From NCBI GenBank assembly GCA_045612545.1, contig JAZKZH010000007.1:57378-121377 (forward strand): a DNA stretch of 64,000 nt. The letters run 5' to 3'. Under the pieces are notes generated by a model. The model saw only the letters and a program-made list of their open reading frames with translations. It searched no databases and was not told the origin of the DNA. The position numbers were made by a program, and so were the translations under genes. Position 1 is the first letter of the stretch; every line of letters starts with the position of its first letter. The stretch is from Eubacteriales bacterium (GTDB lineage: Bacteria; Bacillota; Clostridia; Oscillospirales; CAG-382). Shown here in pieces: positions 4,330 through 32,286 of the stretch.

Positions 4330-8030
<3,701 letters not shown>

Positions 8031-11658: not shown

Positions 11659-12747
11659 TTACTTCTTACAAAGCTCGTCCTTCAGCTGAGCGCAATCTGC
11701 GGAGTCTGTTTTGCCGTCTCCGTTCAGGTCGCCGCGGGCGGCTTTCTCCTCGGTAAGGATCTGCTCCCCTGCCGCATGGCGGGCAAGCACCATATAATCT
11801 ACAGGATCGGTTCTTCCGTCCCCGTTCACGTCCCCGTGGAAGTAAGGCAGCTCGGGCAGCTCATCAGTATATCGGGTGATCAAGGAAGCAACCTCTTCCC
11901 CGGTGCGTGCTTCGTCGTCCCCGTAAATAGCGGCAAGCTGTGTGCGATAGTTGGTTCTGTCCACGATCACAAGGCCGTGGTCGATGCCGGAGGTACACTT
12001 GGCATTGCGCGCGTTATCCACATTCAAAACAGCCTTGATGAAAGCATTGTACTCCGCATAATTATCGCTGACACGTCCCACGATAAAGCACCCCGCGGAG
12101 CTGTAGGAGGTGGGGGTGATGCCGTCGGTAGGCGCATTGCGGAACTGACTGCGGGCATGAATGTTGATGGCAGAGGAGGTAGAGGTATAGCTATCCGTCC
12201 GGGTACAACGTACTGCGGCGGCCTTACCGGAATTATCCTCCAAATGCAAAGCGGCGTAGCCACCCCCATGGTTGATGGAAATGATGTTGTATACGCCGTC
12301 TCTTACGGTGGGCACGGGTGTTCCTTCGTTGGTATCGGGATTACGGGGGTTATCCGGCAGAGTGGAACAGTTTTCCGATTCAAACACAACCACAGGCTTG
12401 CCGTCCACCTCCTGCACCACAGCGCAATAAGCGCCCAAGCGGTATTTGGTGTAGTCACCGTAAGTAGCATCCGTCACCAGATCGCTGCAGCCCTCGAAGA
12501 AAAAGACAATGCTATCCCCGTTTTTTAGATTTCTTGCCACACGATAATTGTTGGTTTCGGAAAGGATGTGGAATTTCATCATCCGATTCACGTAGGAGAT
12601 CTTTGCAGGATCGGAAAGGATGGTACAACGCACCCCGTTCAAATCCGCCTCGGTGTAATAAGTGGTTTCTGCCGCCGCTGTCCCCATGGGGATCGCGGTA
12701 AACAACAGACTTGCGGTGAGAAAAATATGAAGCCATTTCTTTTTCAT
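11659..12747 (-). CDS. secreted dockerin-containing protein with unknown catalytic module
   Basis: Signal peptide ending GTAAAE. The C-terminus has two Ca-binding dockerin repeats, GDVNGDGRTDPVDY and GDLNGDGKTDSADC. Upstream RBS AAAGGAGTG and promoter TTGACA-17-TATACT (12774-12802, minus strand). Confidence 0.85.
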   Translation of the reverse strand: MKKKWLHIFLTASLLFTAIPMGTAAAETTYYTEADLNGVRCTILSDPAKISYVNRMMKFHILSETNNYRVARNLKNGDSIVFFFEGCSDLVTDATYGDYTKYRLGAYCAVVQEVDGKPVVVFESENCSTLPDNPRNPDTNEGTPVPTVRDGVYNIISINHGGGYAALHLEDNSGKAAAVRCTRTDSYTSTSSAINIHARSQFRNAPTDGITPTSYSSAGCFIVGRVSDNYAEYNAFIKAVLNVDNARNAKCTSGIDHGLVIVDRTNYRTQLAAIYGDDEARTGEEVASLITRYTDELPELPYFHGDVNGDGRTDPVDYMVLARHAAGEQILTEEKAARGDLNGDGKTDSADCAQLKDELCKK

Positions 12748-14164: not shown

Positions 14165-14244
14165 GTTTTTCCAAAAAATGTGAAACCATCGGCATTTTTT
14201 CACGAGTATATAAGTAGAGAGAACCACAAAAGGAGGTACCCCCT

Positions 14245-14766
14245 ATGCACGGAAAGAAAAAGTGCAAGATCTTAAAAGAGATCAGAAAGCAGATCGCAAA
14301 GGACAACGATATCACCTATATCACCACGGAATGCAAACACCAAGGCAACTGCAAGGGCACCTGTCCCAAGTGTGAAGCGGAGGTGCGCTATCTGGAAGCG
14401 GAGCTGGAAAAGCGCCGCATGGCAGGCAAGCAGGTGGTTGTTGCGGGCATTGCCGCCACCATGCTGCTCACCGCCTCCTGCACACCCGAACCCCAAGATA
14501 TATCCTCTGCCTCTTCCCAAGCGGAAAGCGCGGAAAGCGTTTATAGCGAGACGGTGGACGGCTTGATGGAGCCGCCATCGGAAGAAGTGACAGCTACCAT
14601 GGGAGAGCTCGCACCGGAAAGCAGCGAGGAAGAATTCTGGGAGGGGGAGGTCCCCGAGGAAAGCAGCGAAGAAGAGCTTGTTCCGGGCGGCGTTCCCGGG
14701 CCGGAGGAAAGCAGCGACGAGGTAGAGCTGGGGGGAGATCCCCTGCCTTGGCCGGAGGAAAACTGA
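14245..14766 (+). CDS. Cys4-motif, single-pass membrane protein with acidic Ser/Glu/Pro-rich tail
   Basis: N-terminal CKHQGNCKGTCPKC (CX6CX3CX2C), one TM helix (VVVAGIAATMLLTA), then a low-complexity acidic tail. RBS AAAAGGAGG. Confidence 0.7.
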   Translation: MHGKKKCKILKEIRKQIAKDNDITYITTECKHQGNCKGTCPKCEAEVRYLEAELEKRRMAGKQVVVAGIAATMLLTASCTPEPQDISSASSQAESAESVYSETVDGLMEPPSEEVTATMGELAPESSEEEFWEGEVPEESSEEELVPGGVPGPEESSDEVELGGDPLPWPEEN

Positions 14767-14767
14767 C

Positions 14768-15394
14768 GTGGCCGTTACCGCCCCCGTCATCACCTATTCC
14801 CGCCTGCGGATGACCACCGACGGGGAAGGAGTCACCACTCTGGTGATCTTCCATGATTGCCCGTTGCGGTGTAAGTATTGCTTGAACCCCTATTCCTTTG
14901 CCACTGACACCAAGCGGGAGGAGCTGACCCCCGAGCAGCTTTATGACAAAGTGAAGATCGACGACCTGTACTTCGTGGCCACGGGAGGCGGTGTCACCTT
15001 CGGCGGCGGAGAACCGCTGTTGCGGGCGAACTTTTTGAAGGAATTCCGCGCCCTTTGTGGGGACAGATGGCATCTCTGCGCCGAGACCTCCTTGAACGTC
15101 CCATGGGAGGCGGTGCTGACCGCGGCGAACTGTATGGATATGTTCTACGTGGATTGCAAGGATACCAACCCTGCCATCTACCGAGCCTACACGGGGAAGG
15201 ACAATGGGGAAATGCTGGAGAATCTACGCACCCTGATCTCCCTTGTGGGGGCAGAACGGGTGATGGTGCGGGTCCCTTTGATCCCCGGCTACAACACGGA
15301 ATCAGATCGAGAAAAATCCCGCGCCCTGCTGGAATCCATGGGCGTGACGCAGTTTGACTTTTTTACCTACAAAACGGAAAGGAGAACCCTATGA
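14768..15394 (+). CDS. radical SAM protein, glycyl-radical-enzyme-activase / NrdG-like
   Basis: GTG start 1 nt after the upstream stop. DGEGVTTLVIFHDCPLRCKYCLNP (CX3CX2C) and GGGVTFGGGEPLL are present. It is 208 aa with no C-terminal SPASM-type Cys cluster. Confidence 0.85.
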   Translation: MAVTAPVITYSRLRMTTDGEGVTTLVIFHDCPLRCKYCLNPYSFATDTKREELTPEQLYDKVKIDDLYFVATGGGVTFGGGEPLLRANFLKEFRALCGDRWHLCAETSLNVPWEAVLTAANCMDMFYVDCKDTNPAIYRAYTGKDNGEMLENLRTLISLVGAERVMVRVPLIPGYNTESDREKSRALLESMGVTQFDFFTYKTERRTL

Positions 15395-16716
15395 AACGGA
15401 TTTTTGCTTATCTTTTGACAGTATCCATCCTTTTGCTCTCCCTTGCGGGATGCCAAGCCACCCCGCCTAAGGAAGAAGGTTCTTCCTTGCCTGCCGAAAG
15501 CACAAGCTCTACGGATGATGCCGAAGACACGAGCTCTGTGGGAGATACCACCTCCTGCCCCTCGGAAACCATCAGCTCCACCCATTGGAGCGAGGTGTAT
15601 TACGCTTCCGAAGAGGACATTGTCGCCCCGCTGGAGGGCTTTGTGTGGTCGGAAACCCTTTGGATGGATGAAGACGGAATTGAACACAGCGTGAGTGCAG
15701 ACGGAATGGGCATCTACAGATTTTTGCCCGCAGAGGACGAGTTGGCTACGGTAGCCATTCCCATTCTCTATTCCGAAAGCGGAAAGGTCACGCCCCTCCT
15801 CCCGAAAGACGCAGAGCTGATCAGCGTTGCCCTGCTGGAACAGCCCCGCAAAGGGTATGAACCCGTGCCTTCCTCTTGGGAAGAGATCGAGGCTCTGCCT
15901 CCCGGCAGATATCACGTGGTGACCTGGGTGAAATACACCTACGACGTGAATACCTGCGCCTGCTACGAGTATTTGTTTACCTTAGCCATCGGAGAGACTC
16001 CCGCAGAACGGGAAGAAAAGGTAACCCTCCAGCGGTATGCCCCCGACGGCTGGGGGATCTCCTCCAAAGAGATCGGGGACTACGCCGTGGCGACCCCGTT
16101 TTTGGAAGCTCTCCGCGCCCTGCAACCCACGGGAGAGGTTGAGCCTGCCTTGCCCCACGAGGAGATGGATTCCTACGATGAGATTCCCGCCGAACCCGGC
16201 ACGTTCTGGGTGGTAGCCGAGGGCAAGCTGTATCGGGTAAGCAGAGATTACGACAGCGTTTGCCTTGTAGACACCCGTTACGGCGAAGGACAGATCTTGA
16301 AAATGACGGACGCCTTTGCCTCCCTGCTGTTTAATGCATGGTATTACGCCCCGAAGGACGTTTGGAAAGGCTCTTACAAGCAAGGCGACGAAAAGATAGA
16401 GCTGACAAACGTATTCTCCGCCCCCTCTACGGTACGTATCACCGTGAAGGAGATCCGCATCGGAGAATCGGGGGATCGCTACAACAGAATCGACGGCATC
16501 ACCGTGGAATTGGTCTCCGCAGCGGATCAAACGGTGGAGCTCTCCTTGCGCAGTCAGCAAAGCGAAGACAATCTGGGCAGCGATGACTATAAAGCGGTGG
16601 AGCTAAAGGCAGGTGTCCCCGTTACGGTGGAAATGTCCTTCTACGGCTTCCCCTACGGATATTGGGTAACCCTTTGGACGGACAATACCCGTGTAGAGAT
16701 ACAGATCGATCCGTAA
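15391..16716 (+). CDS. lipoprotein, unknown function (441 aa)
   Basis: ATGA overlap with the radical SAM stop codon. Signal peptide with lipobox LSLAGC. Confidence 0.75.
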   Translation: MKRIFAYLLTVSILLLSLAGCQATPPKEEGSSLPAESTSSTDDAEDTSSVGDTTSCPSETISSTHWSEVYYASEEDIVAPLEGFVWSETLWMDEDGIEHSVSADGMGIYRFLPAEDELATVAIPILYSESGKVTPLLPKDAELISVALLEQPRKGYEPVPSSWEEIEALPPGRYHVVTWVKYTYDVNTCACYEYLFTLAIGETPAEREEKVTLQRYAPDGWGISSKEIGDYAVATPFLEALRALQPTGEVEPALPHEEMDSYDEIPAEPGTFWVVAEGKLYRVSRDYDSVCLVDTRYGEGQILKMTDAFASLLFNAWYYAPKDVWKGSYKQGDEKIELTNVFSAPSTVRITVKEIRIGESGDRYNRIDGITVELVSAADQTVELSLRSQQSEDNLGSDDYKAVELKAGVPVTVEMSFYGFPYGYWVTLWTDNTRVEIQIDP

Positions 16717-16723
16717 AAGCAAG

Positions 16724-16755
16724 AAAGAAGCGGTTTTTGCCGCTTCTTTTTTTCG
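16724..16755 (+). terminator. intrinsic terminator
   Basis: AAGAAGCGG / CCGCTTCTT stem followed by a T-run. The same hairpin sequence recurs at 17408-17436. Confidence 0.7.
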
Positions 16756-16769
16756 TAAATGCAGAACCG

Positions 16770-16798
16770 TTGACAGCCTTGCCCTTTTATGGTATACT
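16770..16798 (+). promoter_or_regulatory. sigma-A promoter (TTGACA-17-TATACT, TGg extended -10)
   Basis: TTGACA at 16770-16775 and TATACT at 16793-16798. Confidence 0.55.
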
Positions 16799-16818
16799 CA
16801 AAGCAAGAGGTGATCTGT

Positions 16819-17403
16819 ATGAAAACAGTTTTACGCAAGATCGGGGAGTTCTTTTCCCTTCTTTTGGCCTTGCCCCTGATTTTACTTTTTTTGCTGTTCA
16901 TTTTATGCAAAGCTCCCGTAGAATATATCCGCTACCGCCGTTCCATATACCGTAAGGAAACGGGAGAAAAAGCCCATTGGTGGCCGTATAACGATTACAT
17001 CCGTATCTACGACACGGTAAGGGCCAACGACCTCCCTCTGACATTTCTGAGGAACACAGCGGCTGACATCACCGGACACGGCTATTGGATCACAGGAAAC
17101 GCCGCCATTACCCCGGATTGTGGGCTGGCGTACGACGGAGACAAAGGGGAGTGGACGGCAGAGGAAGAGGACGATGAAGGCAATCCCGTTGACTGCGAGA
17201 TCGTAGCCTGCCATCTGGAAGCCTGCCACGCCCTGCCGGGAGGAGAGCATTGCAATTTTGTGTACCTTTTGGTGGATAAAGCCGATGTTCCCGAAAGCGC
17301 TGTGTTATCCTTTGATACCTACCGTATTGTTCCCTATAGCCCCAAAGATCCCCTGCCCGCCTTGGAGGAGATCTTAAAGGCGGAGAAGATCAGCCGTTCA
17401 TAA
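16819..17403 (+). CDS. hypothetical N-terminally anchored protein, paralog 1
   Basis: The start MKTVLRK is preceded by AGAGGTGA. It has one N-terminal TM helix and a shared YRRS.Y motif. Its last ~43 codons are nearly identical at DNA level to those of the 17983 gene. Confidence 0.7.
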   Translation: MKTVLRKIGEFFSLLLALPLILLFLLFILCKAPVEYIRYRRSIYRKETGEKAHWWPYNDYIRIYDTVRANDLPLTFLRNTAADITGHGYWITGNAAITPDCGLAYDGDKGEWTAEEEDDEGNPVDCEIVACHLEACHALPGGEHCNFVYLLVDKADVPESAVLSFDTYRIVPYSPKDPLPALEEILKAEKISRS

Positions 17404-17918: not shown

Positions 17919-17947
17919 TTGACAGGAACATCCCTCTTTGCTATACT
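17919..17947 (+). promoter_or_regulatory. sigma-A promoter (TTGACA-17-TATACT) for the 5-gene operon
   Basis: TTGACA at 17919-17924 and TATACT at 17942-17947. Confidence 0.55.
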
Positions 17948-17982
17948 GGACACACAACCACCCCGTAAGAAAGGAGACTCCC

Positions 17983-18573
17983 ATGAAAAACGCATTGCGC
18001 TCTGTGCGGGACGTGATCCTGTTGGTTTTGCTCTTGCCCTTGCTCTTGCTGGTTTTCGCCTGTTACCTTCTCACCTTCCCCATCACGTTTTTCCGCTACC
18101 GCCGTTCCCCGTATTACAAGGACACGGGAGAGAAGTGCAAGCTGTGGGGACTTACCGATTACGTCCGCTTGTATAACGTCATCAAGAAAAACGGCCTTCC
18201 CATGACCTACCTGCGGGCAAAGGAAGTCCCTCTCACGGGTTACGGCTATTGGATCTTGGGCAACGCCGCCGTGACCTTCGGCTACGAGCCGGAATACGAC
18301 GAGCAAACGGAAGCCTGGCTGTCCAAACAAGAGGATGAGGAGGGAGAACCCTCTGCACCTCGCCCTTTATGGGAAGCTTATCTGGAGGAGTGCAATTCCC
18401 TCCCCGGGGGAGAAGGGTGCGGCTTTGTGTACCTTTTGGTGGATAAAGCCGATGTTCCCGAAAGCGCTGTGTTATCCTTTGATACCTACCGCATTGTTCC
18501 CTATAGCCCCAAAGATCCCCTGCCCGCCTTGGAGGAGATCTTAAAGGCGGAAAATATCCCCTCGGAGGTATAA
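17983..18573 (+). CDS. hypothetical N-terminally anchored protein, paralog 2
   Basis: The start MKNALRS is preceded by AAAGGAGA. The architecture matches the 16819 gene, and bases 18424-18551 match 17257-17384 at 127 of 128 positions. Confidence 0.7.
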   Translation: MKNALRSVRDVILLVLLLPLLLLVFACYLLTFPITFFRYRRSPYYKDTGEKCKLWGLTDYVRLYNVIKKNGLPMTYLRAKEVPLTGYGYWILGNAAVTFGYEPEYDEQTEAWLSKQEDEEGEPSAPRPLWEAYLEECNSLPGGEGCGFVYLLVDKADVPESAVLSFDTYRIVPYSPKDPLPALEEILKAENIPSEV

Positions 18574-28178: not shown

Positions 28179-28218
28179 GTCCAATATCGACGAAATTTAG
28201 TTGCCTAAGGAGCCATCT

Positions 28219-30306
28219 ATGGAAACCCCTTTGTATACCTATCATCTTCCCCCGGAGCTGCAGCCCGTCTCCCGTGCCGTATGGTATTTGTTGGAGCATA
28301 AGCTCATCGCGGTGGAAGGAATCGAAGCACTCCCTTCTATGCCCGCGCCCTTCGAAGAGGAGCCGCCGCTGAAGAAAATTTATATAGGCAATCGCCGTTA
28401 TCTGGGCAACAAATACAAGCTGTTGGAGTTCATCTCCGGCGTGGTGGAGAAGGAATGCAAGGATATCAACACCGTGGTGGATATTTTTGCCGGCACCGGC
28501 GCGGTAGCCTCCGCCTTCACCCACAAGAAGCTGATCACCAACGATTTTCTGTATTCCAACTATCTCTGCAACTTGGCTTGGTTCGGGGCGGAGCATTTTG
28601 ACGAGGTCAAGGTGGAAAGCCTGCTTCGCTACTACAACGCCGTGATTCCCACAGAGGAAAACTATATGTCCCGCACCTTTGGGGACACCTTCTTTTCCCA
28701 TGCCGATTGTCTTAAGATCGGCTTTGTGAGAGAGCATATCGAAGCCCTTCGCAAGGAAAACAAGCTCAACGGCAGGGAACGGGCGATCCTCATCTCCTCC
28801 CTGCTGTACGCCATGGATAAAATCGCCAACACCTGCGGTCATTACGACGCTTTTATTCAAAACGGAAAATTCGAAAAGCATTTGGAGCTTTGTCTCCCCG
28901 CTGTCAGCAACCAAAACAACCCCAACAACCAATGCTTCTGCAAGGATTCCAACCTGCTGGCGGAAAACATCCGCGGAGATTTGATCTATATCGACCCGCC
29001 CTACAACTCCCGCCAATACTGCGACGCCTACCATCTTTTGGAAAACGTGGCAAGATGGGAGCAACCCGCCGTGGCAGGGGTGGCGCGGAAGATGGACAGA
29101 TCCCACCTGAAAAGCGATTACTGCACGGTAAACGCCGCGAGGGCTTTTGAGGATCTGGTGGAAAAGCTTCAAGCCAAGTACATCCTGCTTTCCTATAATA
29201 ATATGGCCTCCAAGGGCAACCAACGCTCCAACGCCAAGATCAGTGACGAGGACATTATGCGCATTCTCTCCCGCAAGGGCAAGGTGACGGTGTTCTCCGA
29301 AAGTTACAAGGCCTTTTCTGCAGGAAAATCCGACATCAAGGACAACGAAGAGCGTCTGTTCCTTTGCGAATGCTACGGCAACAGCTACAAGGAGCCGGTG
29401 CAATCCCCCTTGAACTACATGGGGGGCAAGTTCAAACTGCTGCCCCAGATCCTGCCCCACTTCCCCACCGACATCACCCTGTTCGTGGATCTTTTCTGCG
29501 GCGGCGCCAACGTGGGGATCAACGTGCCCTGCAACAAGGTGATCTTCAACGATAACAACGACCTGCTGCGCCGTATGTTCACCCGCTTCCAGGCAATGGA
29601 AAAGCAGGACACCTTTGAGATGATCGGCAGTATCATCGAGGCTTACCGTCTTTCCGACTCCGAAACCCACGGCTACGAATTTTACGGCTGTCACAGCGGA
29701 GACGGCTTGGCCAAATACAACACCGAGGGCTATCTCCGTCTGCGTAGGGATTACAACCAAAAATGCTTTGGGGATTACGATCCCTATATCATGCTGTACG
29801 TTCTCATCGTCTACGCCTTCAATAACCAGATCCGCTTTAACAAGAAGGGCGAGTTCAACCTCCCTGTGGGCAAGCGGGATTTCAACAAGAAAATGCGGGA
29901 GAAGCTTTCCGTGTTCATCGACCGCCTGAAAAGCGGGGACTATCAGTTCGAGAGCCTGGATTTCCGCAAGCTGCCCAACGAGACTTGGGACGAAAAGACC
30001 TTCGTCTACGCAGACCCGCCCTACCTCATCGCAAACGCCACCTACAACGAGCAGGACGGCTGGAACGAAGCTCTGGAGCGTGACCTCCACGCCTATCTGG
30101 ACGGCCTCCACGAAAGAGGCATCCGCTTTGCCCTCTCCAACGTGCTGCAAACCAAGGGCAAGCAGAACAAGATCCTCTTGGAATGGCTGGGCAGAAACAT
30201 GGACAAATACCGCGTGATCTATTTAGACCACAGCTATTCCAACTCCAATTACCAGATCAAGAACAGAACCTTCAAAACCGATGAGGTTTTGATTGTGAAT
30301 TATTAA
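28219..30306 (+). CDS. fused double N6-adenine DNA methyltransferase (two Dam-like D12-class modules), Type IIS-type
   Basis: AAGGAG lies 6 nt before the ATG at 28219. Module 1 has DIFAGTGAV and IYIDPPYNSRQY. Module 2 has NYMGGKFKLLPQI, DLFCGGANVG and VYADPPYLIANATY. This is the same two-module layout I recall for M.FokI and other Type IIS methylases. Confidence 0.88.
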   Translation: METPLYTYHLPPELQPVSRAVWYLLEHKLIAVEGIEALPSMPAPFEEEPPLKKIYIGNRRYLGNKYKLLEFISGVVEKECKDINTVVDIFAGTGAVASAFTHKKLITNDFLYSNYLCNLAWFGAEHFDEVKVESLLRYYNAVIPTEENYMSRTFGDTFFSHADCLKIGFVREHIEALRKENKLNGRERAILISSLLYAMDKIANTCGHYDAFIQNGKFEKHLELCLPAVSNQNNPNNQCFCKDSNLLAENIRGDLIYIDPPYNSRQYCDAYHLLENVARWEQPAVAGVARKMDRSHLKSDYCTVNAARAFEDLVEKLQAKYILLSYNNMASKGNQRSNAKISDEDIMRILSRKGKVTVFSESYKAFSAGKSDIKDNEERLFLCECYGNSYKEPVQSPLNYMGGKFKLLPQILPHFPTDITLFVDLFCGGANVGINVPCNKVIFNDNNDLLRRMFTRFQAMEKQDTFEMIGSIIEAYRLSDSETHGYEFYGCHSGDGLAKYNTEGYLRLRRDYNQKCFGDYDPYIMLYVLIVYAFNNQIRFNKKGEFNLPVGKRDFNKKMREKLSVFIDRLKSGDYQFESLDFRKLPNETWDEKTFVYADPPYLIANATYNEQDGWNEALERDLHAYLDGLHERGIRFALSNVLQTKGKQNKILLEWLGRNMDKYRVIYLDHSYSNSNYQIKNRTFKTDEVLIVNY

Positions 30307-30318
30307 AAGGAGTTTTTC

Positions 30319-32286
30319 ATGCCGGCATACAAAAGCTTTTGTTGGGCGTTGGGCACTACCAGCTTCCGCATGGTGGAGTTCAATCGCAAGATCGAGCAAC
30401 AGTTAGGCCTCCTCCAAGAGTTTTGGGCAGAACCACAGCACGCCGAACAGTCTTGGAGCTCCAATTCCCCTTTGCAAACGGAGTATTATAACCATCTTAA
30501 AGCCCGGGGATTTATCGAAGACCGTAACGCACCCCGCAAGGATAAGGACGCCCGGGAAAAGACATCCGGCTTAGTCGACCTGGGGCTGATCAACGACGAA
30601 CGTCGGCTCACAGCGGCAGGAGAAGCCTTACTCCAAATGGCAAACGAGGGGAATTTCCACGGGGACAATCTCCTCCAGATCCCCGCAGACAGCTTCCTCT
30701 ATTTCAAGCAATTGCTAAAGGTCTCCTACGATTTTGACGGAGAAGCGGTACGCCCCTATTTGGTGTTGGCCTACCTTCTCTCGCAATTGGGAGAACTGAG
30801 CAAAGAAGAGTTCACCTATTTACTGCCCCTTGCAACCAACCCCGAAAGAACCGAGCTGGTTCTTCGCTATATCCGGGAGATCCGCGCTTGCCGGGCAACC
30901 ATGGACGAAGCCATCCTTTCCGCACTGCTGCAAATGGAAAACTACAGAGAAGCACAGCATCTTTTCCTGACGGCAGAAGAAGTGAACGACGCCTTGATGC
31001 AAGAGATCGGCATGAACCGCAAAAGCCGTGTTTACGATCGCCCCTATACGGTGCTGTATCACAGCTTGTTGACCTTTGCCCAAGCTCCCGACCGTGAAGC
31101 CGCAACAACACTTCTGAAAGCGGTAAACGGGATCAGCGGAAACGCCAAATCTTTTTGGAAGCCCTATCTGTTCAACACCCCTTTGACCTCCGTTATCCGT
31201 CGCGAGGGCGTCGCAGCAGTCAACGACGTCGACCTATTCCACACGCAAAGCGAAAGGGAGTTCCGCACAATCTTTTTCCGCCTGTTGCACCTGTTCAAAG
31301 CCAAAAGCCTGCTTTCCGATTACTTCGACCTGAACAGGCGCTACTTCAAAACCACGGATACACTTCTGTTCCGGGACGGGCAGGTGCAGTTTGACGTGAT
31401 CCCCCGTTGCTTTTTTGCCGTTATCGGGGAGGATCTGCCCGCAGTGGCCTTCACAAGGGACCCCGCTCCCGAAGCAGACGGAACACTGTCCGAGATCAAC
31501 CCCTTGTTTGACGTTTCCGCCCCTCAGCTTTTCGCCAAAGCGGAAGAACTGTACGGCACTCACGTAGAGGATCTGCCTGGTATGCGAGCGTTGGTGCAAC
31601 ACGATCGATACCTCCGTTTCCATCAAATGATCGATACAAGATTTTCGGACGAACAGTTGGTGCGCCTCATGGATCTGTTTGAACGAAGAGAAGACGGAGA
31701 GGTCCGTGAATTGGTGACCAACAACGCCGACCTTCCCACCATTTTTGAATACGTAGTTGCCATTGCATGGTACAAGATCTCCGGCAGGCACGGCGATGTT
31801 CTCAGCTATATGAACTTATCTCTAGATGCAGACCTGTTACCCATCTCCCACGCAGGAGGCGGCCGCGAGGACATCACCTATCATTACCAAGCCACGGAGG
31901 ACTACCCTGCCCACACCCTCCTCATTGAGGTCACCCTGGCAAACGGCACGGCACAGCGCCGTATGGAAATGGAACCCGTTTCCCGTCATTTGGGAGAATA
32001 TCTCCTTGCCCACACGGAGGAAACGTATTGTGTATTCATCACGCCGTTTCTCCATTGCAACGTGACGTCGGACTTCCGTGGCAGAAAACAAACGCCTTAT
32101 TACACCTCCGACGGAACGCGGGGTATTGACGGCATGAAAATCATCCCCTGCCAAACGGCTGAGATCAAGCGGATCCTCCAAAGAGGTATTTCCTACGGAC
32201 AGCTGTATCAGCTCTTCGAGACCGCATATCACTCCCAAGTCCCTCCCAACCTGTGGTACAACAACGAAATTGCAAACGCTCTGTAA
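30319..32286 (+). CDS. AlwI/PleI/MlyI/N.BstNBI-family Type IIS restriction endonuclease
   Basis: 655 aa. The N-terminal WALGTTSFR and the C-terminal ISHAGGGREDI...LLIEVTL...EMEPVSRH closely parallel the THAAGNQPDMEI...LGEVTT...ESEPVTRH core I recall from N.BstNBI. RBS AAAAGGAG. The gap from the methyltransferase is 12 nt. Confidence 0.8.
   Translation: MPAYKSFCWALGTTSFRMVEFNRKIEQQLGLLQEFWAEPQHAEQSWSSNSPLQTEYYNHLKARGFIEDRNAPRKDKDAREKTSGLVDLGLINDERRLTAAGEALLQMANEGNFHGDNLLQIPADSFLYFKQLLKVSYDFDGEAVRPYLVLAYLLSQLGELSKEEFTYLLPLATNPERTELVLRYIREIRACRATMDEAILSALLQMENYREAQHLFLTAEEVNDALMQEIGMNRKSRVYDRPYTVLYHSLLTFAQAPDREAATTLLKAVNGISGNAKSFWKPYLFNTPLTSVIRREGVAAVNDVDLFHTQSEREFRTIFFRLLHLFKAKSLLSDYFDLNRRYFKTTDTLLFRDGQVQFDVIPRCFFAVIGEDLPAVAFTRDPAPEADGTLSEINPLFDVSAPQLFAKAEELYGTHVEDLPGMRALVQHDRYLRFHQMIDTRFSDEQLVRLMDLFERREDGEVRELVTNNADLPTIFEYVVAIAWYKISGRHGDVLSYMNLSLDADLLPISHAGGGREDITYHYQATEDYPAHTLLIEVTLANGTAQRRMEMEPVSRHLGEYLLAHTEETYCVFITPFLHCNVTSDFRGRKQTPYYTSDGTRGIDGMKIIPCQTAEIKRILQRGISYGQLYQLFETAYHSQVPPNLWYNNEIANAL

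Follow-up and report, generated by a model that had tools for sequence, protein, structure and literature searches.

Gene organisation of the locus

The stretch of DNA analysed here (the window) covers 64,000 nucleotides of contig JAZKZH010000007.1 from a Eubacteriales bacterium and carries three consecutive + strand genes for a 173-aa protein with a five-Cys N-terminal domain, a 208-aa radical S-adenosylmethionine (SAM) enzyme and a 441-aa lipoprotein. Comparison with related loci showed that the enzyme is encoded beside proteins bearing the five-Cys domain in two phyla, and the enzyme and these proteins very probably form a functional pair. The proteins are called clients here and their N-terminal domain the tag. 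On the comparative data the functional unit appears to be a self-contained two-gene cassette and not a three-gene module. The features of the locus are as follows.

14230-14236, + strand: AAGGAGG ribosome-binding site of the client gene, 8 nt 5' of the ATG at 14245 (from the sequence)
14245-14766, + strand: client gene, 173-aa pre-lipoprotein with five-Cys tag, lipoprotein signal peptide and acidic Pro/Glu/Ser tail (ORF)
14245-14418, + strand: N-terminal five-Cys domain, residues 1-58, with C7, C30, C36, C40 and C43 (conservation and AlphaFold2, AF2)
14419-14481, + strand: signal-peptide n- and h-regions (MAGKQVVVAGIAATMLLTAS) and lipobox Cys79 (pattern in the sequence)
14554-14742, + strand: five Gly-centred sites of the client tail, ~14 residues apart, proposed modification sites (from the sequence)
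14768-15394, + strand: radical SAM gene, 208 aa, GTG start, single-cluster, PflA-like (ORF, PF04055 and PF13353)
14819-14830, + strand: DGEG loop (D18-G21), equivalent of the PflA Asp16 loop (alignment to PflA)
14858-14881, + strand: CX3CX2C radical SAM cluster motif (C31, C35, C38), then Asn40 (sequence and conservation)
15391-16716, + strand: lipoprotein gene, 441 aa, LAGC lipobox at residues 18-21 (ORF)
16724-16749, no strand assigned: GC-rich hairpin with T run, 8 nt 3' of the lipoprotein stop (palindromic stem, + strand GAAGCGGTTTTTGCCGCTTCTTTTTTT)

The + strand arrangement of the three genes, with a TGA-c-GTG junction at 14764-14770 and an ATGA overlap at 15391-15394, was confirmed as given in a preliminary description of the window, and the LAGC lipobox reported for the 441-aa protein was also present. 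A GGAGG sequence precedes all three starts (client, enzyme and lipoprotein). The hairpin at 16724-16749 is likely the end of a transcription unit shared by the three genes. In agreement with the same description, no glycyl-radical enzyme (GRE) was found within the window by a motif scan and by Pfam search of the ten largest open reading frames (ORFs). The regular expression for the glycyl-radical motif, run on all window ORF segments of at least 200 aa, produced two matches, both in out-of-frame ORFs. No PFL-like or Gly_radical domain was found by Pfam in the ten largest ORFs, the families of which included GH2, methyltransferase, AlwI-type endonuclease, DUF4855, TPP enzyme, AMP-binding enzyme, ABC transporter, solute symporter and RNase J.

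Distribution and co-occurrence of enzyme and clients

A homologue scan with one genome per species produced at least 557 confirmed enzyme matches, and the best 80 loci were analysed with their flanks (+/-6 kb). On the Clostridia side, these 80 loci came from Oscillospiraceae, Faecousia, Acutalibacteraceae and Lachnospiraceae, with Selenomonadaceae also represented. The Bacteroides loci were those of B. xylanisolvens, B. faecis, B. nordii and B. cellulosilyticus, and the other Bacteroidales loci came from Muribaculaceae, Prevotellaceae, Paludibacteraceae and Barnesiella. A tblastn search with the first 62 residues of the 173-aa client found the tag, with identities of 63-98%, in 77 of the 80 loci. 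Two of the three loci without it were cut off on the relevant side, so that a tag gene adjoins the enzyme gene in 77 of 78 assessable loci. The sole assessable locus without a tag gene within 6 kb of the enzyme was that of Bacteroides cellulosilyticus DSM 14838 (L061), which points either to a client gene elsewhere or to a system in decay.

Tagged genes were located directly upstream of the enzyme gene in Firmicutes and directly downstream in Bacteroidales, with gaps mostly of -4 to +25 nt and with up to five tandem client paralogues per enzyme. When seven tag-bearing proteins were looked up in reverse, a ~205-aa radical SAM gene was adjacent or one paralogue away in all seven, and the flanks were otherwise unrelated (EamA, TMEM164, MgtC, DnaB_2, Peptidase_C15 and others). 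In two phyla the enzyme has a conserved partner other than a GRE, which bears out part of the preliminary interpretation. In the source annotations the enzyme was named either 'radical SAM protein' or 'pyruvate formate lyase activating enzyme', and the clients were named 'hypothetical' or 'energy transducer TonB'.

All-against-all clustering of the ORFs of the 80 loci showed no third real conserved gene. A third shared ORF cluster (61 loci) was rejected as spurious, its members being minus-strand ORFs overlapping client genes where checked. No GRE was apparent among the top 25 shared gene families of the 80 loci, a survey which did not include a GRE-specific search. The proposed three-gene arrangement was not kept when tested by tblastn: the 441-aa lipoprotein was found in only one of the 80 loci (L001, enzyme 98% identical) and was absent from L002 (enzyme 89% identical) and the other 78. 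A 353-aa membrane protein encoded upstream was found in L001 and L002 only, by the same search of the 80 loci. Neither the 441-aa lipoprotein nor the 353-aa membrane protein had a match in Pfam, NCBIfam, PADLOC or PHROGs, and the lipoprotein carries no tag and only one site (PTGEV) resembling the glycine motif of the clients described below. Its occurrence in a single near-identical relative points to a lineage-specific co-transcribed passenger. Overall, the earlier idea of a radical-SAM-dependent module for envelope-protein modification fits the evidence, while the three-gene make-up given to that module does not.

One Bacteroides enzyme sequence occurred on at least 1000 contigs. Among 2.9 million viral contigs only one distant enzyme homologue (42% identical) was found, and the association of the cassette with phages is weak. 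On this IMG/VR contig of 133.6 kb (L090, 3312-4609) the enzyme is preceded by a 202-aa protein with an internal Cys domain (~residues 110-150) and no signal peptide, ending in ...NMIMGGLE, and the next gene encodes a 474-aa protein which, as a guess from the sequence, is a clamp-loader-like ATPase. In Bacteroides xylanisolvens XB1A (L049, NC_021017.1:795124-807720) the enzyme gene (5992-6609) and the gene of a client with a TonB_C domain (6614-7621) are located between genes for 1056-aa and 959-aa proteins, which by eye resemble a helicase of UvrD/AddA type and a nuclease of PD-(D/E)XK type, an arrangement that would point to insertion into an AddAB-like pair.

Radical SAM enzyme

The two enzyme motifs quoted in the preliminary description, DGEGVTTLVIFHDCPLRCKYCLNP and GGGVTFGGGEPLL, were both found in the 208-aa protein, and the stated lack of a SPASM or twitch domain was borne out by Pfam, the only matches being Radical_SAM and Fer4_12. 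Classification with hidden Markov models gave scores under every curated NCBIfam cut-off, in line with the earlier view that the protein differs from ordinary NrdG and PflA. The best NCBIfam match was TIGR02494 (PFLE_PFLC) with 132.8 bits against a cut-off of 174.35. The PflA model TIGR02493 gave 96.8 bits (cut-off 231.75), the NrdG models TIGR02491, TIGR02495 and TIGR02826 gave 29.8, 41.7 and 18.6 bits (cut-offs 126.1, 131.15 and 151.7), and the specific activase equivalogs gave 54-108 bits with cut-offs of 250-500. A sequence search of the PDB with the family profile showed E. coli PflA as the top relative (3C8F, E 1e-19). The AF2 model of the enzyme had a pLDDT of 80.7 and its top Foldseek match was 3CB8, a PflA-peptide complex (E 2e-12, TMq 0.75), with ~26% identity between the enzyme and PflA in the structural alignment. 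The next Foldseek match, QueE, was five orders of magnitude weaker than PflA.

The enzyme carries the CX3CX2C and GGE motifs and, in its predicted fold, a partial TIM barrel like that of PflA. An auxiliary cluster formed by C97, C104, C122 and C130 was considered and rejected: the Bacteroides enzymes do not conserve C104, C122 and C130, and PflA likewise has Cys at the positions of C97 and C104. Since the extra Cys of the Firmicutes enzyme are either unconserved or shared with PflA, a single cluster is indicated. By sequence and predicted fold, the 208-aa protein is thus assigned as a single-[4Fe-4S], PflA-like radical SAM enzyme. It ends ~40 residues short of the PflA C-terminus and has no ferredoxin-like insert of the kind found in PflC-type activases. 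PADLOC and PHROGs gave generic radical SAM matches only (viperin, QueE-like and NrdG), all of them weak, and a known defence or phage function of the enzyme, client or lipoprotein was not supported by either database.

The residues that place a glycine in PflA were retained. C31, C35, C38 and N40 were 100% conserved in the 80 loci, as were D18, G19 and G21, and in the HMMER alignment to 3C8F the residues D18 and N40 align with PflA Asp16 and Asn38, which hydrogen-bond the substrate Gly734 (PMC9326890). The pyruvate formate-lyase activating enzyme (PFL-AE) accepts short Gly peptides, and substitution by L-Ala (S-Ala) kills the interaction (PMC9326890). Arg12 and Arg14 are invariant in the enzyme family. 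They closely precede the DGxG loop, in the part that corresponds to the peptide-binding residues 10-20 of PflA, and could pair with an acidic residue beside the glycine of the client motif. The loop itself reads D-G-x-G-V-T, with Thr in 99% of the 80 sequences at the place where the PflA loop has Arg. We take the activase loop motif to be DGxGxR, its Arg presumably being Arg21 of PflA.

Five-Cys tag and signal peptide of the clients

The 173-aa client had no match in Pfam, NCBIfam, PADLOC or PHROGs. Its tag showed the family consensus M-x-G-K-x-K-C-K-I-L-K-E-I-R-x-Q-I-A-x-x-N-D-I-x-Y-V-T-S-E-C-K-x-Q-G-D-C-x-G-T-C-P-K-C-E-A-E-V-R-Y-L-E-x-E-L-E-K-R-R. In 123 representatives clustered at 50% identity, 16 of the 62 columns were invariant and ~13 nearly invariant; four of the five Cys were invariant and C36 was present in at least 90%. 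The spacing CX6 reported for the Cys knot was found to be wrong: it is C30-x5-C36-x3-C40-x2-C43, with a fifth conserved Cys at position 7 and an invariant G38-T-C-P within the C36-x3-C40-x2-C43 stretch. An exhaustive phmmer search with the tag against 1.84 billion representatives produced 2662 proteins at E<=1e-3 and 1676 at E<=1e-10. The tag started within residues 1-4 in ~140 of the 150 matches listed and was offset in the others, and the proteins had 71-514 aa. Between B. xylanisolvens and the window the tag was 70% identical compared to 55% for the enzyme, and on these sequences the tag is more conserved between phyla than the enzyme.

No Pfam or NCBIfam relative of the tag was found and no significant one in the PDB, where the best profile match had an E value of 0.5; the sub-threshold PDB matches included RnfB, YjgC (Fe-S) and the LysW zinc knuckle, none significant. 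The AF2 model of the client showed one helix at 3-20, a short one at 24-28 and, past the Cys loop, a long one that begins at residue 41 and continues into the hydrophobic segment; confidence was low overall (pLDDT 58) and lowest-rated in the Cys loop (<50). The five-Cys domain is proposed to be a cytoplasmic element for enzyme docking, or a leader. The CX3CX2C spacing of C-K-G-T-C-P-K-C (window 14350-14373, client residues 36-43) is the same as that of the cluster motif of the enzyme, which may be a coincidence or a hint of Fe-S binding. In four metagenomic proteins (P0288, P0351, P0363 and P0336) the tag was joined straight to fragments of cytoplasmic enzymes (DUF1846_C, Fe-ADH C-terminal and flavodoxin-like) without a signal peptide; these fusions are probably assembly or gene-call chimeras.

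Directly after the tag, the clients share a basic n-region (KRxxxGK), 15-18 hydrophobic residues and a small-small-Cys ending. In the window client these are the n-region KRRMAGK, the h-region QVVVAGIAATMLLTAS and Cys79 in the lipobox-like context LTAS|C. A lipobox-like ending was present in 81 of 99 locus-derived members, 118 of 120 short members and at least 111 of 148 representatives. In a Bacteroidales subgroup the signal peptide ends in A-x-A followed by Gln-Gln; in Bacteroidota, substrates of signal peptidase I typically have Gln at +1. A few clients have a hydrophobic anchor only, and a divergent subgroup has no hydrophobic segment. The segment previously taken for a transmembrane helix therefore corresponds to the h-region of a lipoprotein signal peptide with Cys79 directly after it, which makes the 173-aa protein itself a predicted lipoprotein precursor. 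The reading as a membrane protein that keeps one TM helix and a knot on the cytoplasmic side was not sustained, as the knot precedes a cleavable signal peptide and is predicted to be removed. Standing in front of that signal peptide, the tag is not expected in the mature protein, and the clients in general would lose it when their signal peptide is cleaved.

Exported parts and glycine motif

The exported parts of the clients were highly diverse and many had no known domain. Most Firmicutes clients, including the window protein, have acidic Pro/Glu/Thr-rich tails of 40-70 residues. TonB_C was found in 14 of the 123 representatives and in several Bacteroidales clients, and not in the window protein (Pfam), while CarboxypepD_reg-like domains were found in 6 of the 123. 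The TonB_C cargo of some Bacteroides clients explains the NCBI name 'energy transducer TonB', a label which describes one of several cargo domains and not the client family. The tails of Bacteroidales clients (L074 6708-7574, L075 and L080) were rich in D-S/T-[AILVMT] triplets such as PDSTE, NDSIP and PDSLE. Such triplets resemble the sequon for O-glycosylation in Bacteroides, a likeness that would agree with tails exposed in the periplasm or at the surface.

Past the signal peptide, the disordered segment showed a repeated motif, Φ-x-G-[D/E]-Φ, in many cases with Pro and acidic residues after it (examples in the family are LEGDV, VDGEM, LMGDP and LDGDI). The pattern [LVIM]xG[DE][IVLM] was observed 127 times in 114 non-redundant tails against 8.7 expected from shuffles (z 38), and 163 times against 12.2 expected (z 46) in independent representatives clustered at 50% identity. 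Its density was 9.8 per 1000 aa in client tails and 12.4 in their first 80 residues, compared to 0.50 in the remaining long ORFs of these loci. At least one copy was present in 75-93% of clients, depending on the sample and the strictness of the motif, and in half of the short clients the last copy was within 16 residues of the C-terminus. The five sites of the window tail are VDGLM (104-108), TMGEL (118-122), WEGEV (132-136), VPGGV (146-150) and LGGDP (162-166), of which only WEGEV is near the scored motif, with W in place of L, V, I or M at -2. A DNA tandem repeat behind the ~14-residue spacing of these sites was looked for and none was found.

Clients without a hydrophobic segment, which are not exported, retained such sites (IVGDI, LLGEI, VFGDV, FFGEA and IMGGLE). 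They comprise the Prevotellaceae type (~100-113 aa) and one protein beside the 42%-identical enzyme on the viral-classified contig. The retention of the motif in these proteins ties it to the cytoplasmic tag-enzyme system and not to an envelope function.

Proposed leader-guided modification before export

A model in which the enzyme modifies its clients under guidance of the tag is suggested by five observations: the chemistry of the nearest relatives of the enzyme, which take the C-alpha hydrogen from a backbone Gly, the retained residues that anchor the glycine, the strictly N-terminal position of the tag, the ~20-fold motif enrichment and the signal peptides that would remove the tag. The cassette would consist of a ~205-aa PflA-like enzyme and one to five clients, each with a tag, a signal peptide and a variable exported part. 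The tag would stay on the cytoplasmic side as docking or leader element and may complete the truncated barrel of the enzyme. Before or during export, the 5'-deoxyadenosyl radical would take the C-alpha hydrogen of Gly in the Φ-x-G-[D/E]-Φ repeats, which are situated in the disordered stretch just past the signal peptide. The client would then be exported by Sec and processed by Lgt/Lsp or signal peptidase I, with the tag and signal peptide cut off, and the end product would be a modified lipid-anchored or secreted protein, which in the window would be the 173-aa protein. The radical might lead to oxidation to an imine and then backbone cleavage, to a cross-link, or to return of hydrogen with a stereochemical change at a neighbouring residue.

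As a whole, this leader-guided modification of clients before export is held at about even confidence. Docking of the enzyme by the tag, the timing of the modification ahead of export and the cleavage of the signal peptide are inferred parts of the model. That the motif Gly is the modification site is put forward with somewhat less than even confidence; the acceptance of Gly peptides and not of L-Ala by PFL-AE fits a motif in which Gly is invariant and the residue at -2 is hydrophobic, like RVxG.

Several points weigh against this model. Approximately 7-25% of clients have no strict motif, and the motif counts come from related sequences that are not independent, an effect reduced by clustering at 50% identity. 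A glycyl radical placed on a disordered peptide would have no evident stable fate, and neither an auxiliary cluster of the enzyme that would oxidise it nor a second enzyme is available. The replacement of the PflA loop Arg by Thr means that substrate binding may differ from that of PflA. In addition, some Bacteroides clients, such as the TonB_C protein of B. xylanisolvens, have neither a lipobox nor AxA, and in these the tag may stay in place permanently as a domain in the cytoplasm. Finally, the tag is far more conserved than typical RiPP (ribosomally synthesised and post-translationally modified peptide) leaders and has five conserved Cys. These features point to a function in addition to docking, for example that it binds a metal or Fe-S cluster or is itself the substrate.

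A bolder form of the model, possible but doubtful, is that the cassettes produce a new class of ribosomally made, radical-SAM-modified surface lipopeptides or proteins of gut anaerobes. These would have a folded, metal- or Fe-S-binding five-Cys leader ahead of a Sec or lipoprotein signal peptide, general signal peptidases as leader protease and an activase descendant that, in place of making a stable protein radical, alters backbone Gly in Φ-x-G-[D/E]-Φ motifs. Possible outcomes would be oxidative backbone cleavage, amidation or cross-linking, and a substrate-borne cluster might be the missing electron acceptor.

Alternative explanations

An enzyme acting on the five-Cys tag itself would make a thioether or other Cys cross-link, or a radical at the invariant Gly38 or Gly34, and the modified tag with its signal-peptide fragment would serve as a signal or regulator at the cytoplasmic face, the exported part being secondary. 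This explanation draws on the extreme conservation of the tag, with 16 invariant and ~13 nearly invariant of 62 columns and above that of the enzyme across phyla, and on the great diversity of the exported parts. The C36-x3-C40-x2-C43 arrangement with G38-T-C-P also suggests chemistry or metal binding and not simple recognition. It is nevertheless considered unlikely: the 20-fold motif in the tails and its retention in non-exported clients would be left unexplained, as would up to five paralogues with different exported domains per enzyme. PflA-type sites, moreover, take a backbone Gly in an extended loop (PMC9326890), whereas the Gly of the tag is inside a predicted metal knot.

The tag could instead be an Fe-S or Zn accessory of the enzyme, as electron supply, missing auxiliary cluster or membrane tether, with the true substrate, a small molecule or an unlinked protein, elsewhere. 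Such a donor or tether needs no fusion before the signal peptides of many different exported proteins with several paralogues per locus, is not expected to be cut off by signal peptidase, and is accompanied in the loci by no other conserved gene for a substrate or pathway. These observations make an accessory role quite improbable, even though the five conserved Cys include the CX3CX2C spacing, the weak PDB matches of the tag include Fe-S proteins and a zinc knuckle (none significant), and an enzyme that lacks both the PflC-type insert and the last ~40 PflA residues could be completed by a partner.

That the enzyme, the Cys protein and the 441-aa lipoprotein form one three-component envelope system is very unlikely. 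The ATGA overlap between the lipoprotein start and the enzyme stop, the one terminator hairpin common to the three genes and the prediction of both flanking proteins as lipoproteins would fit such a system. The comparative data make an obligatory role of the lipoprotein unlikely, as its only homologue was in L001, and it has no tag and one motif-like site only.

An ordinary GRE activase (PflA, NrdG or other) with its GRE elsewhere and incidental adjacency to the Cys protein is strongly disfavoured and hardly credible: its nearest characterised relatives are GRE activases, some source annotations read 'pyruvate formate lyase activating enzyme' and the L061 enzyme has no adjacent tag gene, but all curated equivalog cut-offs were missed, no GRE was found in the window and none was apparent among the widely shared families of the 80 loci (with no GRE-specific search), and the tag adjacency held in 77 of 78 loci of two phyla and in all seven reverse look-ups, where the other neighbours were unrelated. 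Bacteroides species carry separate pflA and nrdG genes.

Other features of the window

Directly downstream of the operon, two paralogous + strand genes (16789-17403 and 17938-18573) encode proteins of 204 and 211 aa, 56% identical over 192 residues and each with an N-terminal hydrophobic segment; the 204-aa protein had no Pfam or NCBIfam match. A strong promoter-like site (11/12) was found at 16770-16798, ahead of the 204-aa gene. At 28201-32286 on the + strand, a gene for a 701-aa D12-class N6-adenine methyltransferase-domain protein is followed by one for a 655-aa AlwI-type restriction endonuclease, and the two are likely a restriction-modification pair. A 362-aa secreted protein encoded at 11659-12747 on the - strand has a C-terminal type I dockerin (PF00404, E 2e-12), which suggests a cellulosome-type organism. 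The closest relatives of the enzyme and client were from metagenome-assembled genomes of ruminant-gut Clostridia.

Significance

The cassette was carried by several hundred species-level genomes, including those of abundant human-gut Bacteroides (B. xylanisolvens/ovatus, B. faecis and B. nordii), Muribaculaceae, Prevotellaceae and many rumen and gut Clostridia. No description of it was found in the full-text literature, including by search for the literal tag string GTCPKCEAE, with most subscription journals outside the scope of the search. It also went unmentioned in a paper on RiPP mining in Bacteroidales and in one on TonB in B. thetaiotaomicron. No precedent is apparent for three elements of the proposed system: the use of an activase-type enzyme for such a task, a folded five-Cys recognition domain before a signal peptide, and the Φ-x-G-[D/E]-Φ target. 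The cassette otherwise builds on known kinds, namely radical-SAM-modified ribosomal products and RiPP-lipoprotein hybrids.

If the proposed model is true, the glycyl-radical activase scaffold gains a job in peptide or protein modification instead of enzyme activation, a radical SAM branch is added to the newly recognised RiPP-lipoprotein hybrids, and major gut commensals would have a defined set of modified surface molecules. The misleading database names of the enzyme and clients would also be corrected. Each system has two genes and is carried by cultured, genetically tractable Bacteroides.

Comparison with known systems

Compared to PflA (3C8F, 3CB8), the enzyme shares the single cluster, the CX3CX2C and GGE motifs and the partial TIM barrel, with Asp16 and Asn38 kept as D18 and N40, and its proposed target resembles that of PFL-AE, a backbone Gly with a hydrophobic residue at -2. 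It differs in being ~40 residues shorter, in having Thr for the loop Arg and its own invariant Arg12 and Arg14, and in having as conserved partner a tagged exported protein and not a GRE.

N-terminal extensions before otherwise normal signal peptides are known from the extended signal peptide region (ESPR) of autotransporters, the YSIRK / KxYKxGKxW signals and Tat leaders. These extensions are short and free of Cys, and are not known to be genetically coupled to a radical SAM enzyme. The anaerobic sulfatase-maturating enzymes (anSMEs, e.g. Bacteroides ChuR) are cytoplasmic radical SAM enzymes that act on a short linear motif in an unfolded protein bound for export. They have SPASM auxiliary clusters, convert Cys or Ser to formylglycine in C/S-x-P-x-R and are not known to have a dedicated N-terminal tag on their substrates, whereas the enzyme described here has no SPASM domain by Pfam.

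The radical SAM maturases of RiPPs (sactisynthases and the epimerases YydG, EpeE and PoyD) resemble the cassette in having precursor genes beside the radical SAM enzyme, a conserved N-terminal region and a variable C-terminal region with repeated target sites, and C-alpha hydrogen abstraction on peptides has precedent among them. The cassette shows the RiPP-type arrangement of precursor genes beside the enzyme, a conserved leader-like region and a variable core with a recurring motif. Most leader-dependent radical SAM RiPP maturases use RRE/PqqD domains and/or SPASM/twitch clusters. No RRE/PqqD, SPASM or twitch was detectable in the enzyme described here. The putative leader also differs, being a 60-residue five-Cys domain on a Sec/lipoprotein signal peptide, and the clients reach 514 aa and can be folded.

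The DAG-RiPPs, products of ChrH-type MNIO enzymes, are RiPP-lipoprotein hybrids that undergo modification in the cytoplasm before they enter the lipoprotein pathway; they are common in Bacteroidota, with substrates ranging from peptides to proteins of >30 kDa (PMC13056109). The main text of that paper has no mention of 'radical' or 'rSAM'. Their enzyme is a tri-iron MNIO and not a radical SAM enzyme, their target is a C-terminal CPACGMG, which the window client does not have, in place of the internal Φ-x-G-[D/E]-Φ, and they have no structured domain ahead of the signal peptide. Both systems combine a precursor that has a lipoprotein or signal peptidase I signal peptide with one cytoplasmic modifying enzyme, and in both the modification is proposed to come ahead of export and lipidation. 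Overall, the DAG-RiPPs give a recent experimental precedent, with a different enzyme class, for cytoplasmic modification followed by lipoprotein processing.

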